Shown here in pieces: positions 4,017-63,665 of a DNA stretch of 64,000 nt (positions are counted from its first letter, which is position 1; every line of letters starts with the position of its first letter). Position numbers and translations under genes: made by a program. The DNA comes from an uncultured Alphaproteobacteria bacterium (GTDB taxonomy: Bacteria; Pseudomonadota; Alphaproteobacteria; Rs-D84): the NCBI GenBank assembly GCA_944390225.1, contig CALXPB010000002.1, positions 63,650 through 127,649 on the forward strand, written 5' to 3'. The notes beneath the pieces were generated by a model. It ran no database searches. It was given only the letters and a program-made list of their open reading frames with translations, and was not told the origin of the DNA.

Positions 4017-4018
<2 letters not shown>

Positions 4019-4047
4019 AAAAAGCCGGTATTTACCGGCTTTTTTTT
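4017..4047. terminator. bidirectional intrinsic terminator (mreB / HTH gene)
   Basis: A-run, AGCCGG (4023-4028), loop TATTTA, CCGGCT (4035-4040), T-run. Confidence 0.65.
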
Positions 4048-4261
4048 AATCAAATTTTGAATATCTGTCGTCAAATTTAATTGAATAAAGCGGGGCTGGG
4101 ACCGAAGAAATAAACATAATTAAATCAAAGGTTGTTAATTTCCGCCTGCCAGAAACAATATGCCAATATTCCTGTTCATTAACATTAAAAACATTGCACA
4201 TAAAAACAACGGATAAACCACGTTGCTGTCTAATAGATTCAATTTCCGCGCCAACCCGCAT
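4046..4261 (-). CDS. small XRE-family helix-turn-helix protein (71 aa)
   Basis: I use the internal ATG at 4261, which has AGGAG 7 nt upstream (minus strand). The sequence VGAEIESIRQQRGLSVVFMCNVFNVNEQEYWHIVSGRRKLT fits the HTH_3/XRE pattern. The upstream part of the 94-aa ORF runs into the RNA terminator and is unlikely to be coding. Confidence 0.6.
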   Translation of the reverse strand: MRVGAEIESIRQQRGLSVVFMCNVFNVNEQEYWHIVSGRRKLTTFDLIMFISSVPAPLYSIKFDDRYSKFD

Positions 4262-4284
4262 TTTCAAACTCCTGAATTTCAAAC

Positions 4285-4451
4285 AAAGAAAAACCACCAG
4301 AAAATTCAGGTGGTTGGAGTTTAGTAGCAATTGAACGAATTGCGGCCTTATTCAATATATTCAGCACACTCCAACCTATTGGTTGGATTTTCGCCTTAGT
4401 TTCAGGCGCGTTCAATGGGCTACTAATCCCAGCAACAGAACACCTGTTGCG
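4285..4451 (-). ncRNA. tandem structured sRNA / leader unit 1 (adjacent to the HTH gene)
   Basis: On the minus strand: -35 TTGATA (4486-4481), 17-nt spacer, -10 TATAAT (4463-4458). The 3' end is the hairpin ACCACC/GGTGGT (4314-4293) plus a U-run. Internal helices covary with units 2-5. Ends are approximate. Confidence 0.65.
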
Positions 4452-4520
4452 ATATGTATTATAACCACCCATAAATCATATATCAAATTATTTTTTCTGG
4501 TGTTTTTACTCCTTTACGTT

Positions 4521-4694
4521 AAACAAAAACCACCAGAAAATTCAGGTGGTTGGAGTTTCAACACAATTCAATCAGAAATTGCGGTCTTATTCAATATATT
4601 CAGACCACTCCAACCAATTAGTTGGAGATATGTTTCACCATCACTGGCGCTGATTGAATGGGTGTTGAATCCCAACAACAGAACACCTGTTGCG
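4521..4694 (-). ncRNA. tandem structured sRNA unit 2
   Basis: On the minus strand: TTGATA (4729-4724), N17, TATAAT (4706-4701). Terminator hairpin 4550-4529 followed by UUUUUGUUU. Ends are approximate. Confidence 0.65.
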
Positions 4695-4763
4695 GTATAT
4701 ATTATAACCACCCATAAATCATATATCAAATTATTTTTTCTGGTGTTTTTACTCCTTTACGTT

Positions 4764-4931
4764 AAACAAAAACCACCGGAAAATTCAGGTGGTTGGAGTT
4801 TCAACACAATTGCTAGGAATTGCGGCCTTATTCAATATATTCAGACCACTCCAACCTATTGGTTGGATTTTTACGTCATCGTTGACGCCTAGCAATGGGT
4901 GTTGAATCCCAACAACAGAACACCTGTTGCG
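4764..4931 (-). ncRNA. tandem structured sRNA unit 3
   Basis: On the minus strand: TTGATA (4966-4961), N17, TATAAT (4943-4938). Terminator hairpin 4793-4772 plus a U-run. Confidence 0.65.
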
Positions 4932-5000
4932 ATATGTATTATAACCACCCATAAACCATATATCAAATTATTTTTTCTGGTGTTTTTACTCCTTTACGTT

Positions 5001-5169
5001 AAACAAAAAACCACCGGAAAATTCAGGTGGTTGGAGTTTACAAACAATTGAACGAATTGCGTGCCTTATTCGATATATTCGGCACACTCCAACCTATTGG
5101 TTGGATTTTCGCCTGATAATCAAGCGCGTTCACTAGGTTTGTAAGCCCAGCAACAGAACACCTGTTGCG
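5001..5169 (-). ncRNA. tandem structured sRNA unit 4
   Basis: On the minus strand: TTGATA (5204-5199), N17, TATAAT (5181-5176). Terminator hairpin 5031-5010 plus a U-run. Confidence 0.65.
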
Positions 5170-5238
5170 GTATATATTATAACCACCCATAAACCATATA
5201 TCAAATTATTTTTTCTGGTGTTTTTACTCCTTTACGTT

Positions 5239-5414
5239 AAACAAAAAACCACCGGAAAATACAGGTGGTTGGAGTTTACAAACAATTCAATCAGAAATTG
5301 CGGTCTTATTCAATATATTCAGACTCACTCCAACCGATTAGTTGGAGATATTTTTCGCCATCACCGGCGCTGATTGAATAGGTTTGTAAGCCCAGCAACA
5401 GAACACCTGTTGCG
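5239..5414 (-). ncRNA. tandem structured sRNA unit 5 (distal)
   Basis: On the minus strand: TTGATA (5449-5444), N17, TATAAT (5426-5421). Terminator hairpin 5269-5248 plus a U-run. Confidence 0.65.
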
Positions 5415-5514
5415 ATATGTATTATAACCACCCATAAACCATATATCAAATTATTTTTTATGTACGACTGCATATTTGACAACGGTTTAATTTGTGCTAA
5501 ATTATAAAAAAACT

Positions 5515-6696
5515 ATGGATAATTATATGGATACAGAAGATTACAATATTTTTGATGATGTTATTGATAATGATGATTATTCTAGAATAAATCAAAATTT
5601 CTTTATTGAAGAATCTCTTGATACTAGGGTAAAGTATATCAGTTCTACTATTAACTCAAAAATCCGAACATTATCAGAAGTTTTTCTTGAATGGTTCTTA
5701 TTTGATTCTTCCGAAGAAAAAACTCTGGAATCTTTTATTAAATCTGAAAATATTGATGCTTTTATAACGCCAGAACAGTTTATGGATATAATGTCTAATA
5801 AAGCACATTTGGACGAGCATTTAATACTTTTGGTGCAACAAAAACTCCCGTTTCAAGTACCGCTTAAAAAGATGTATTATTTAAATTCACAAGCAAGAAA
5901 AAACTATACATATTGTATAAAAGTTCCGCCAGAAATTATTCACGATTTAATAAAAAAGGAATTAAATTTAAAAAAAGAAAAAATTAAACAACAGCGAAAA
6001 CAATATTACGAACAAAATCGTGATAAAATTGCGAAACAAAAAAAACAATACTGTGAAATTAATCGTGATAAAATTGCAAAACACAAAAAACAATATTACG
6101 AAGAAAATCGTGATAAAATTTTAGAATACACTAAACAATATTACGAAAAAAATCGTGATAAAATTGCAAAACATCAAAAACAATATTACGAAGAAAATCG
6201 TGATAAAATTTTAGAATATCGTGAACAAAGTCGTGATAAAATTGCAGAATACAAAAAACAATATTACAAAGAAAATCGTGATAAAATTGCAGAATACCAA
6301 AAACAATACCAAGAAAAAAACCGTAATAAAATTGCAGGATACCAGAAACAATACCGTGAAGAAAATCATGATAAAATGTTAAAATACCAACAAATGTATA
6401 AAGAAAGAAAAGAAATGGCCAAATCTGTATGTCCTGCTTTCCTTTTCCTTGATTCTCTTAAAAAAGAAAACATTGTTGTATATTTGACTTTGCATAAAAA
6501 ACATTCTGACATTATAGGAAAAGCCGTTAAATCTTGTAGGGCTCTTCAAAATATGGATTTTACTCTTTGCCCACTTTTTAAATCTGTTGATTCTGAACAA
6601 TATATGAAAGAATCTTGTCCTATGCCTAACGCTTTCGTTCTGCCACAATCTTTCGACATTATCAGAAACTTTGTAACAGTTTTAAAACAACGATAA
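5515..6696 (+). CDS. hypothetical protein with a central array of 15-aa KQYYEENRDKIxEYx repeats and a Cys-containing C-terminus
   Basis: Long ORF. The ORF-track start at 5494 is GTG; the first ATG is at 5515. A TTGACA-type promoter lies at about 5475. I recognise no family. Confidence 0.55.
   Translation: MDNYMDTEDYNIFDDVIDNDDYSRINQNFFIEESLDTRVKYISSTINSKIRTLSEVFLEWFLFDSSEEKTLESFIKSENIDAFITPEQFMDIMSNKAHLDEHLILLVQQKLPFQVPLKKMYYLNSQARKNYTYCIKVPPEIIHDLIKKELNLKKEKIKQQRKQYYEQNRDKIAKQKKQYCEINRDKIAKHKKQYYEENRDKILEYTKQYYEKNRDKIAKHQKQYYEENRDKILEYREQSRDKIAEYKKQYYKENRDKIAEYQKQYQEKNRNKIAGYQKQYREENHDKMLKYQQMYKERKEMAKSVCPAFLFLDSLKKENIVVYLTLHKKHSDIIGKAVKSCRALQNMDFTLCPLFKSVDSEQYMKESCPMPNAFVLPQSFDIIRNFVTVLKQR
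5995..6405 (+). repeat. about 9 tandem 45-bp coding repeats
   Basis: Units of the form caatattacgaagaaaatcgtgataaaatt... recur every 45 bp. One unit is shortened (EQSRDKIAEYK). Confidence 0.9.
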
Positions 6697-26358: not shown

Positions 26359-27503
26359 TGGCGCGACAAACCCGCGTTTCTAATGCTAATATGATGAGTT
26401 TTCCAGAAAAACTTAGTCGTTTTTCTTGGGCTTTATTTATTCCTATGTGCTTAGTTTTGGCTATTTCCATAGTTGTATTATACTCTGCCGGTGGTGGTTC
26501 TTGGTATCCTTTTGCTATGTCTCAACTTATTAAAATATTAATTGGGTTTGCAGTATTCTTTTTTGCGGCATTTACAAATATAAAAACCTGGATAAAATCT
26601 GCTTATCTAATTTACATAATAGCACTTATTTTAATCATATTGGTAACCTTCATAGGACATACCGGAATGGGTGCACAAAGATGGCTTAACCTTGGTTTTT
26701 TTCACGTGCAACCATCAGAATTAATAAAAATTGCACTTGTACTGGCACTGGCGCGGTACTTTGCTTGGATGAATTCTGTTGAATTATCTCAAATAAAAAA
26801 TTATACGCTTCCGGCAACAATGCTGGCTATACCGTTTTTATTAATCGTATTTCAGCCAGATTTAGGAACTGCTTTATCTCTTGGAATGATTACAGTAGGC
26901 ATGTTCTATATCGTCGGTGCACAAAAAAAATGGTTCATTATAGCCATATTACTGGGGTTACTTTCTGCACCGCTTATATGGTATGGCGGTCTGCATGATT
27001 ATCAACGCGACAGAATTATTACTTTTATAAATCCAGACCATGATGCCCAAGGTGCAGGTTATCAAATTAACCAAGCAAAAATAGCATTTGGTAGCGGTGG
27101 TATTTTAGGTAAGGGTTATATGGCAGGGACTCAATCACAGCAGTCTTTCTTACCAGAAAAACAAACTGATTTTATATTTACTATGCTTGGTGAAGAATTC
27201 GGTTTCTTAGGTGCTTTTTCACTATTAATGCTTTATACAGTAATAATTATTATTCTTTTCTGGTGTGCTAAAACATGCAGAAACAGATTTGGTCAGTTGG
27301 TTTGTTTTGGTTTTATGTTGAACTTTTTTATTTATTATTTTATAAATATCTCTATGGTTCTGGGTCTGATGCCGACAGTAGGTGTACCTCTGCCATTAAT
27401 GTCTTTTGGTGGCAGCAGTCTTTTATCGCTGATGTTCGGTTTCGGTCTGTGTCAAAACGCACATATTCATAAAGACCAACAGTTATCTGCAAAAGGAAGT
27501 TAA
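26358..27503 (+). CDS. rodA: SEDS-family peptidoglycan polymerase RodA
   Basis: A polytopic protein with VQPSELIKIAL and LPEKQTDFIFT motifs. Confidence 0.9.
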   Translation: MARQTRVSNANMMSFPEKLSRFSWALFIPMCLVLAISIVVLYSAGGGSWYPFAMSQLIKILIGFAVFFFAAFTNIKTWIKSAYLIYIIALILIILVTFIGHTGMGAQRWLNLGFFHVQPSELIKIALVLALARYFAWMNSVELSQIKNYTLPATMLAIPFLLIVFQPDLGTALSLGMITVGMFYIVGAQKKWFIIAILLGLLSAPLIWYGGLHDYQRDRIITFINPDHDAQGAGYQINQAKIAFGSGGILGKGYMAGTQSQQSFLPEKQTDFIFTMLGEEFGFLGAFSLLMLYTVIIIILFWCAKTCRNRFGQLVCFGFMLNFFIYYFINISMVLGLMPTVGVPLPLMSFGGSSLLSLMFGFGLCQNAHIHKDQQLSAKGS

Positions 27504-62729: not shown

Positions 62730-63665
62730 TTAGAAAAGTTTCGTTTGTTTTGCAACATCCCACCATAACTCAGAAAAAACGGGGCGATTTTTTTCTTCGT
62801 GCCAAGGTTTCATCCAATTAGAGTAGTGTAAAACAACAAGATTATATTTTAAATCATGTATTTCTTGATCTGTGTGAACCTTGAAAATCCAAGATCCCAT
62901 CATAGGTTGAAAATTATATTTCAGTGGTAAGTAGATTATTCGCCCACGACATGTGTAATTTAATAAATCTTGGTCTGGATTTTTATATTTCTTCTTTTGT
63001 GATACTTGTACCCATTTTTGATATATTTTTTCTTTTCGTATAATATCAAGATTCATAACCAGAAAACCAGAATTTATATACCCGTTTTTATAATCTTTTA
63101 CACCGGCAAATATATTTTTTCCCATATTTATATTATAGACGTCAATTAAAGGCTTCCTGAAAATTATATCTATATCTGCATATATTATTTTTTTTATTTT
63201 GGGTAATAGGTTAGGCAACATTAAACGCCAAAATACAGAAACTGGCCATTTTGCCCTGAATGATTTGTTAAAATCTGTATTTGCTTGTAAAAAAACAATT
63301 TTTGATTTTGTGCCTATAACTAAATTATTAATTGTTTTTTTATGTTTGTCCGGGAATTTTTTATCAATTACACAATATATGTTATAATCACATTTGTTTT
63401 CAGATACTTTCAATAAAGACTTAATTGATACTGCCGCCAGTTTGTGACCTTTTTCATCAAAGCAAAAAGCAACATTTATTTTATCTTTTAATTTTTCTTT
63501 TGGGAAATCACTTTCTATTTCATAGGAAATTATATTTTTAAATCTTATTTTATCTCTAATTTTTCTGCGCGAGGTACGGCTGCGCCCAAATAGAGAAGCA
63601 ACAGTGGCGATAAATTCTTTGACTTTCCAGTTAGAAAACATTTGTTCTCCTAATTTTTTTTTCAT
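62730..63665 (-). CDS. family 8 glycosyltransferase (LPS/LOS core hexosyltransferase-like)
   Basis: DxD motif in IIYADIDIIF, plus NSGFLVMNL. An alternative in-frame start MFSNWK lies 9 codons in. Confidence 0.7.
   Translation of the reverse strand: MKKKLGEQMFSNWKVKEFIATVASLFGRSRTSRRKIRDKIRFKNIISYEIESDFPKEKLKDKINVAFCFDEKGHKLAAVSIKSLLKVSENKCDYNIYCVIDKKFPDKHKKTINNLVIGTKSKIVFLQANTDFNKSFRAKWPVSVFWRLMLPNLLPKIKKIIYADIDIIFRKPLIDVYNINMGKNIFAGVKDYKNGYINSGFLVMNLDIIRKEKIYQKWVQVSQKKKYKNPDQDLLNYTCRGRIIYLPLKYNFQPMMGSWIFKVHTDQEIHDLKYNLVVLHYSNWMKPWHEEKNRPVFSELWWDVAKQTKLF

Follow-up and report, generated by a model that had tools for sequence, protein, structure and literature searches.

A 64-kb stretch of DNA (positions 63,650 to 127,649 of contig CALXPB010000002.1; called the window below, at its full length) from an uncultured bacterium of the alphaproteobacterial order Rs-D84 contains a tandem array of promoter-RNA-terminator units directly before a gene for a small helix-turn-helix (HTH) protein. 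The locus raises the question of whether unit 1, the RNA nearest to the gene, governs the transcription of that gene, and by which pairing. An earlier note on this DNA had read three short segments of unit 1 as the anti-antiterminator, antiterminator and terminator parts of a classical attenuator. The array RNA is a real RNA family that is absent from Rfam and is of a known general kind. It is possible, at somewhat less than an even chance, that the unit is an attenuating leader that terminates by default and that may be switched by strand exchange among the three segments.

The array and the parts of unit 1 on which this reading rests are as follows.

4284..5459, minus strand: array of five head-to-tail units with a period of 237-245 bp, each with promoter, RNA and terminator
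4284-4456, 4520-4699, 4763-4936, 5001-5174 and 5239-5419, minus strand: matches of the units to covariance model (CM) R1, 135-210 bits
4458..4486, minus strand: unit-1 promoter of the sigma-70 type, with -35 TTGATA (4486-4481), a 17-nt spacer and -10 TATAAT (4463-4458)
4387-4381, minus strand: segment 1, UCCAACC (DNA TCCAACC), the 5' arm of hairpin H4
between 4387-4381 and 4376-4368, minus strand: loop AATA between segments 1 and 2
4376-4368, minus strand: segment 2, DNA GGTTGGAGT, RNA GGUUGGAGU, the 3' arm of H4; its final two bases open the stem of hairpin H5
4320-4312, minus strand: segment 3, DNA ACTCCAACC, RNA ACUCCAACC, complementary to segment 2 at 9/9 nt
4285..4314, minus strand: intrinsic terminator, ACCACC (4314-4309), loop, GGUGGU (4298-4293), then the U-run UUUUCUUU
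4262..4273, minus strand: ribosome-binding site, AGGAG (4273-4269) and a 7-nt spacer to the ATG
4046..4261, minus strand: HTH protein gene, 71 aa, ATG at 4261, end at 4046

Direct extraction from the minus strand gave the same positions, exact to the base, as had been reported for the segments, the terminator, the AGGAG and the ATG. The overlap between segment 3 and the 5' arm of the terminator is likewise 3 nt in unit 1. Each unit consists of a TTGATA-17-TATAAT promoter, about 170 nt of conserved sequence, and a G+C-rich hairpin with a U-run, and unit 1 adjoins the open reading frame (ORF). The promoters match 11/12 consensus positions, are identical in 5/5 window units, and include the TTGATATATGGTTTATGGGTGGTTATAAT region in their sequence. 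From the promoter, the start site of unit 1 is predicted at about 4455-4451. Tandem Repeats Finder reported a period of 238 and 4.9 copies for the array, the five units align with 87% column identity, and CM R1 found no sixth copy in the window. The RNA unit, its own promoter and its intrinsic terminator are all real, and every unit has the promoter and the terminator. All five window units have the three segments, as do all 48 aligned units (23 sources). A 7-mer followed by its reverse complement and then by the 7-mer again was found in 80/20,000 dinucleotide shuffles of unit 1. The motif GGTTGGAG occurs 10 times in the window (expected 0.78), each time within one of the five units. With a shuffle frequency this low and GGTTGGAG confined to the units, the three-segment arrangement exceeds chance.

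The minimum free energy (MFE) fold of unit 1 has a value of -64.5 kcal/mol (z = -7.2). In this fold UGGG-AUUAGUAGC...AUUGAAC pairs with GUUCAAU...GCUACUAA-A-C(U)CCA about 90-110 nt downstream and forms a long rod of two helices, P2 and P3. The rod closes a three-way junction bearing hairpins H3, H4 (segments 1 and 2) and H5, and the terminator stands directly after it. The C-CCA of segment 3 pairs with UGGG at the P2 base and its terminal ACC begins the terminator stem. This fold is referred to as state N. Its remaining elements are these.

4432..4450, minus strand: hairpin H1, GCAACAG / CUGUUGC, loop GUGUU
4409..4431, minus strand: 5' strands of the long-range rod, UGGG 4431-4428 (P2 base), P2 4426-4419, CCC internal loop, P3 4416-4409
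4392..4408, minus strand: hairpin H3, GCGCC...GGCG, within the three-way junction
4342..4369, minus strand: hairpin H5 with the conserved loop GAAUAUAUUGAAUAA, then the conserved junction CGCAAUU
4321..4337, minus strand: 3' strands of the rod, P3 4337-4330 and P2 4328-4321

Covariation was assessed in a model-guided alignment of 48 units, 46 of them distinct, that was fitted to the state-N structure. In the 46 distinct units pairing holds in 97.9% of cells, and 34/53 pairs show compensatory change. The covariation score of 0.392 exceeds those of shuffles (0.119) and of slid partners (at most 0.051). All seven pairs of H1 are compensatory with 100% of cells paired. Compensatory change is found at 6/8 pairs of P2, 8/8 of P3 and 5/5 of H3, and P2 and P3 have three or more matched, fully compensated alleles, a pattern that is also plain in MAFFT alignments. 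H5 has three compensatory pairs, and the terminator stem, which is followed by a U-run in every unit, covaries in its upper part (four compensatory pairs). H4 is paired in 99.4% of cells, with one-sided wobble variation at six pairs and compensatory change at one. The proposed pairing of segments 1 and 2 is a genuine hairpin of a fold supported by covariation. The three-segment topology was nevertheless incomplete as first described. The long-range helices P2 and P3 had been missed, and CUCCA of segment 3 pairs with the upstream UGGG. Some unpaired nucleotides are also conserved: the H5 loop GAAUA..GAAUAA, the junction CGCAAUU and the CCY internal loop. In an alternative state the CCY loop can pair with UGGG, and CAAUU can pair with AAUUG.

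The second pairing, between segments 2 and 3, is conserved as well. Its nine pairs are intact in 99.8% of cells in the 46 distinct units, compared with 24-56% in slid controls, and compensatory change is found at 2/9 pairs. Pair 7 changes from A-U to G-C in locus L019, where segment 1 changes too. Pair 9 changes from U-A to G-C in five distinct units, and L038/L040 have a further variant, U.G, at this pair. None of 500 shuffles reached the observed count of compensated cells or the observed score. The U-to-G change in segment 2 disrupts its native partner in H5 (pair 155:185) in 6/6 distinct units, and the new base pairs with segment 3 in 5/6. In addition, the AACC of segment 3 is conserved even in L019, L030 and L031, where the terminator stem does not use it. 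Units of a single genome can differ at these positions and still be matched internally (L016, L017 and the Enterousia metagenome-assembled genome, or MAG). Such unit-by-unit matching favours pairing in cis over a common target in trans. Thus, with the complementarity kept and the units differing yet matched, the three-segment arrangement is under selection.

The RNA is also consistently linked to a gene. At all loci examined, a Shine-Dalgarno sequence (SD) and a co-oriented ORF come after the last unit, within roughly 15-75 nt of it, so that the ORF has hardly any space, or none, for a promoter of its own. Three unrelated ORF families are found in this position: the HTH protein, secreted proteins with the PF07699 Ephrin_rec_like domain (nine loci), and a 51-aa ORF (L011). 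In L019 and L013 the RNA precedes a secreted cysteine-rich protein of about 300 aa with the Pfam Ephrin_rec_like domain. A copy of the RNA also stands immediately before seven more Ephrin_rec_like paralogues, with a separate promoter, terminator and G-rich SD in each case; three of these are at further loci of one Enterousia MAG, including the rpsK-rpoA interval. In the window, no promoter-like site was found in the 31 nt between the unit-1 terminator and the HTH gene. Therefore, the HTH gene would depend on read-through.

These results can be placed in a mechanism, which is conditional throughout: the parts, the fold, the conservation and covariation of both pairings and the link between cassette and ORF are observed, and from them the start site, the 3' end, the reliance on read-through and any switching are inferred. 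Unit 1 would be the gene-proximal copy of a structured RNA of about 170 nt with its own sigma-70 promoter and intrinsic terminator. The cassette would serve as a transcription-attenuating leader for the following ORF, here the 71-aa protein of XRE fold, and this promoterless ORF would be transcribed only by RNA polymerase that has passed the terminator. The default would be state N, with H1, the P2/P3 rod, the three-way junction with H3, H4 and H5, and the full terminator. State N would favour termination and release a stable RNA of about 170 nt. If the rod or H4 fails to close, through kinetics or through some factor, segments 2 and 3 could pair, and the local hairpins UGGG:CCYA and CAAUU:AAUUG could form alongside. 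This state A would open the base of P2 and the lowest part of the terminator stem, and so permit read-through.

Several observations weigh against such a switch. Seven of the nine pairs of segments 2 and 3 never vary, so that they are uninformative either way, and the independent events are few. The sole broken cell is in L011, which is uncompensated at pair 9. Three of the units compensated at pair 9 (L029, L031 and L033), in which segment 3 changes from A to C, also gain an extra G in the UGGG strand, and P2 could explain the change. The alignment (A6) was fitted to the state-N structure. The energies are also unfavourable. The penalty for forcing segments 2 and 3 to pair is +16 to +22 kcal/mol for the five units of the window, +10 to +16 kcal/mol for relatives, and +6 to +16 kcal/mol for nascent RNA without the 3' arm of the terminator, and the equilibrium probability of the core of this helix is about 1e-12. 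With the 5' strands of P2 and P3 left out, the two states lie within a free-energy difference of 1.7-7.7 kcal/mol. The helix of segments 2 and 3 crosses P2/P3 rather than nesting with it, so that on top of a formed rod it would be a sterically strained pseudoknot, which is unlikely. The order of transcription favours H4, P3 and P2 before segment 3 emerges. Segment 3 overlaps the terminator by 3-4 nt in most units and by 1 nt in L019, L030 and L031, and the terminator hairpin of L019 survives forced pairing of segments 2 and 3. Units 2-5, each with its own promoter, retain the segments although the next unit, not a gene, follows them. No ligand or protein was identified, and the units contain no conserved leader peptide.

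Thus the complementarity that had been proposed between segments 2 and 3 is conserved and shows compensatory changes, while the balanced classical attenuator built upon it is not supported, because the P2/P3 fold is far more stable and the pairing is not nested within it. These points could be carried further, to the view that the complementarity has no function at all. Segment 3 would then resemble segment 1 by old duplication or by convergence, and would be constrained by the P2 base and the terminator, with segment 2 constrained by H4 and H5. The invariant pairs, the break in L011, the coincident G in the UGGG strand and energetics that exclude the pairing at equilibrium would all agree with this. 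However, the L016_4683, L017_4467 and L041 units have the G-C pair without the extra G, and the bulged U of segment 3 becomes C only where segment 2 has a G (L019). The conservation of AACC where the terminator does not need it and the result of the 500 shuffles also argue for a function, and its absence is considered very unlikely.

The main rival to the attenuating leader is a free-standing small RNA (sRNA) gene, acting in trans and amplified in tandem. The terminator would then be constitutive, and the HTH protein, perhaps an autoregulator of the array promoters, would be expressed by passive leak-through. Segments 1 and 3 would be copies of a C-rich seed or of a protein-binding site, and segment 2 would mask one of them. 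The segments kept in units 2-5 fit such an sRNA as well: each unit has a strong promoter and a terminator, and 4/5 units have no gene following. The number of units at the metG/mreB locus ranges from 1 to 5 across strains and species, as would be expected for dosage of an RNA product, and the terminating fold is overwhelmingly the most stable one. Segment 3 lies just 5' of the terminator, which is a usual position of an sRNA seed. However, no target resembling GGTTGGAG was found in the window outside the units, and the complement of the H5 loop gave no excess of matches in the window. The variants of segments 2 and 3 are matched per unit within a genome, which is unexpected for a common trans target, and segment 1 drifts through wobble pairs, as the strand of a helix would and a recognition site would not. 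Loci outside the HTH clade have a single copy of the RNA, always directly before a co-oriented ORF that has hardly any space, or none, for a promoter. The sRNA explanation is thus judged possible but doubtful. It and the leader are not mutually exclusive, as has also been proposed for the Brt RNAs of Bartonella that are compared below.

Translational control and a complementarity without function are both less likely than the sRNA. In the translational version, the anti-SD-like segments 1 and 3 (CUCC / CCUCC) and the SD-like segment 2 (GGAG / GGAGG) would compete with the downstream SD in read-through transcripts, and the choice between pairing of segments 1 and 2 and of segments 2 and 3 would set whether segment 3 masks the SD. 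Segment 2 does contain GGAG(G/U) and segment 3 (C)CUCC, and the downstream SDs are G-rich (AGGAG, GGGGG, GGGGGAGU). The L014/L020 site GGGGUUGGU even contains the core of segment 2, GGUUGG. However, the complementarity between segment 3 and the SD in the window is only 5 bp (ACUCC:GGAGU), and SD sequences do not track the variants of segment 3. The terminator hairpin sits between segment 3 and the SD, and one C-rich copy would be free in either state, which blurs the on/off logic. This reading is regarded as highly improbable.

A tentative distant relative, L047, is also relevant to the translational reading. L044 and L047 lie upstream of distant secreted-protein paralogues (P0024 and P0016) and gave no CM or nhmmer match. 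A collinear element ended by a terminator can be recognised by eye at L044 5516-5692 and L047 5790-5968. All three of its segments have changed in concert and are still complementary: CCCC-AU-ACCAA / UUGGUCGGGGUG / CACCCUGACC in L044 and CCCCGAUGCC / GGCGGGGGUG / CACCCCGGCC in L047. In both elements the helix of segments 2 and 3 is the MFE helix, and blocking segment 3 gives the pairing of segments 1 and 2 at +5 to +7 kcal/mol. The z-scores of the folds are about -1, no better than shuffles. These elements hint at a relation to the array RNA, a homology without statistical support. In L047 the terminator does not overlap segment 3, and exchange between the two pairings leaves it untouched, as the translational version would allow. 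If L047 is related, this would argue against an exchange that serves termination alone.

The HTH gene itself had been described as a small gene of the XRE type, and this was borne out at the level of the fold. An AlphaFold 2 model, built on an alignment of orthologues, has a predicted local distance difference test score of 88.9 and a predicted template modelling (TM) score of 0.74. Its core helices are H3-14, H18-25, H29-37 and H44-53, followed by a short C-terminal helix of low confidence (65-69). The best PDB matches from Foldseek are ClgR, C.BclI, HipB, C.AhdI, DdrO and SinR (TM 0.63-0.73, root-mean-square deviation about 2 A). The Pfam gathering score was not reached: HTH_31 matched 1/6 orthologues at E=0.032 and 15 bits, with a cutoff of 27, and no Pfam domain was found on the 19 clusters of the protein family. 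The gene is real and conserved all the same: orthologues of 61-72 aa are present in several MAG species, with 34-65% identity and 11 invariant positions, and some few clusters in the database reach lengths of up to 108 aa. The protein was found only in gut metagenome assemblies. Beyond the HTH gene lies one further element.

4017..4039, no strand assigned: hairpin GCCGG-UAAAUA-CCGGC with A- and T-runs on its flanks, between the convergent HTH and mreB genes

This hairpin is probably a bidirectional terminator. An equivalent also follows the HTH gene in L012, L014, L015 and L020. On the other side of the array is a divergent 400-aa ORF (5494-6696, plus strand), made up mostly of repeats of about 15 aa of the KQYYEENRDKIAE type with a tandem period of 45/90 nt. 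It matches no Pfam family, and its counterpart varies from 378 to 531 aa among strains.

Cassettes of the RNA and an Ephrin_rec_like gene can be found within housekeeping neighbourhoods, namely rpsK/rpoA, tsf/tyrS, and an acyl-ACP thioesterase gene/rpmH. These are at L029 2257-3409, L031 2307-3418, L030 2199-3287 and L032 2298-3442, in Candidatus Enterousia sp. and its relatives. The combination resembles a portable expression cassette that duplicates. Between the terminator U-run and the Ephrin_rec_like SD, L013 (about 230-290), L034 (about 1445-1495) and L035 (about 1440-1495) have a second long hairpin, GGUGGCGUAU...AUGCGCCACC. It starts with GGUGG, as in the 3' arm of the terminator.

The family was followed beyond the window. 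Relatives were sought with the pattern of the H1 hairpin in one genome per GTDB species. Ten species were found, each an uncultured Alphaproteobacteria MAG and one of them named Candidatus Enterousia sp. In all, more than 55 homologous units were collected, all in MAGs of uncultured gut Alphaproteobacteria, one of which is Candidatus Enterousia. With the same pattern, the JGI metagenome and IMG/VR collections gave chance matches only, and nhmmer shows that the similarity is confined to the pattern itself. A blastn search ('distant') of plasmid and phage collections with unit 1 and the HTH gene gave only chance 30-nt matches. When the whole window was searched against Rfam 15 with gathering thresholds, only four tRNAs passed and the array RNA was unmatched. 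At E<=10 on 4200-5500, the best match was SgrS with 21.9 bits, against a gathering score of 37. This short match covers 73 nt at the 3' end of unit 3 and overlaps the terminator of that unit.

The units combine a few helix alleles in mosaic fashion (window 4284-5459; loci L001-L020 and L038-L043). This suggests frequent recombination or gene conversion; the copy counts could be affected by collapse of repeats during assembly. In L018 5074-5246 and L002 2320-2497 the P2 or P3 strands come from different alleles and pairing is incomplete, so these units are either natural recombinants or chimeric assemblies. The spacers between units (4500-4519, 4743-4762, 4981-5000 and 5219-5238, minus strand) each contain AAGGAG a few bases past the terminator, and no start codon follows it. 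Because AAGGAG persists in these spacers, the units probably arose when a unit was duplicated along with the downstream gene's ribosome-binding site.

An analogy with the Brt RNA / Trp pairs of Bartonella had been offered in the earlier note. The layout agrees with it, and no similarity of RNA or protein was detected on the plasmid tested, pBGR3 of B. grahamii. Members of the Brt family are 74-100% identical, and BLAST found them in no genus other than Bartonella (Tu et al., 2016, PMC5387305). A distance of 10-18 nt separates each RNA from its own downstream Trp gene, which encodes an XRE HTH protein of 108-152 aa. The Brt RNA is highly abundant and the downstream gene is poorly transcribed, and the 3' end of the RNA has been proposed as a terminator or riboswitch that gates the HTH gene, with a possible role in trans (PMC5387305). 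Both systems have an alphaproteobacterial host and a multicopy, highly structured RNA of about 170-200 nt with its own promoter, immediately before a small XRE-type HTH gene without a promoter region of its own. The spacing is also alike, with the U-run of the unit-1 terminator about 20-30 nt before the gene of XRE fold. In contrast, the Brt/Trp pairs are 1:1 and dispersed in a plastic region, whereas up to five RNAs precede one gene here. The HTH protein here has 61-72 aa, the RNA family also precedes non-HTH (Ephrin_rec_like) genes, and the host order is Rs-D84, not Hyphomicrobiales.

Homology to the Brt RNA was looked for directly. A blastn search ('distant') of all PLSDB plasmids returned no Bartonella match. 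On pBGR3, which carries one Brt copy according to the paper and was the only Bartonella replicon tested, nhmmer --max gave nothing below E=3.9 and CM R1 gave no match at E<=0.01. BLASTP produced no alignment between the pBGR3 HTH protein and the array HTH protein. Rfam holds no family that matches the unit, and Brt is likewise not in Rfam. The region 26480-26690 of pBGR3 (L037), about 210 nt before a gene for an HTH regulator (BGR_RS10030), folds at -68.6 kcal/mol (z = -5.4) with a long-range helix closing several hairpins. It matches no Rfam family and has no canonical hairpin and U-run terminator. From its placement, this region is presumably the Brt copy of the plasmid.

Terminator, antiterminator and anti-antiterminator expression platforms are found in trp and pyr leaders, T-boxes and riboswitches. 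The array RNA resembles them in being a promoter-proximal leader with an intrinsic terminator just before an ORF. It also has mutually exclusive pairings of segments 1 and 2 and of segments 2 and 3, an overlap of segment 3 with the 5' arm of the terminator, a maintained alternative helix, and conserved unpaired nucleotides in a multi-helix junction. It differs in lacking a conserved leader peptide and in being tandemly repeated with a promoter per unit. About 20 bp of long-range helices strengthen its anti-antiterminator state, which leaves the states unbalanced, and its antiterminator would cross P2/P3. A leader peptide of the trp type was considered and rejected; the ORFs over the units start inside the promoter, before the predicted start site, and their frames are broken by 1-nt indels and variable stops. 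An inverton was rejected as well. Segments 2 and 3 form 9-bp inverted repeats about 47 bp apart, a spacing too short for an inverton, and none of the more than 55 units is inverted.

Tandem sRNA genes provide another comparison. Listeria LhrC1-4 and Pseudomonas PrrF1/2 are near-identical, head-to-tail sRNA genes, each with a promoter and a Rho-independent terminator and with C-rich motifs, and the array has these same features. Homology was undetected, with no Rfam match. The LhrC and PrrF sRNAs are shorter than the array RNA and do not obligatorily precede a promoterless ORF, and they are not known to carry an internal covarying complement of the seed.

A bolder version of the attenuating leader can also be put forward. 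The RNA may be a class of bistable leaders that respond to a factor or a ligand, a portable promoter-sensor-terminator cassette of the reduced genomes of Rs-D84. Its targets would be the secreted Ephrin_rec_like family and the small XRE regulator, and in one lineage the array would also be a small-RNA locus of variable dosage. The exchange would then be concerted: UGGG would pair with the CCY loop or with segment 3, segment 2 with segment 1 or segment 3, and CAAUU:AAUUG would replace P3. This version is rather unlikely as a whole.

Enterousia belongs to the order Rs-D84, whose members live in the gut and have genomes that are smaller than about 1 Mb and about 90% coding (PMC12306168). Candidatus Enterousia and its relatives are uncultured symbionts of the human and animal gut, with little space for regulators. 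The RNA has unusual features: tandem promoter-RNA-terminator units, hypervariable but compensated helices, and an alternative pairing that is conserved yet energetically disfavoured. If the exchange of strands is not a switch, the array would still represent a well-supported new RNA family, with helices that are useful for studying the evolution of RNA in tandem repeats. If the exchange is a real switch, the RNA would be a new attenuator or riboswitch-like class and an independent case of the Bartonella-like layout of an RNA before an XRE gene. A structured RNA array of 1.2 kb in such a small genome points to a regulatory device that is important for the organism, and the reuse of the cassette before at least nine secreted-protein genes, some of them amid housekeeping genes, points in the same direction.

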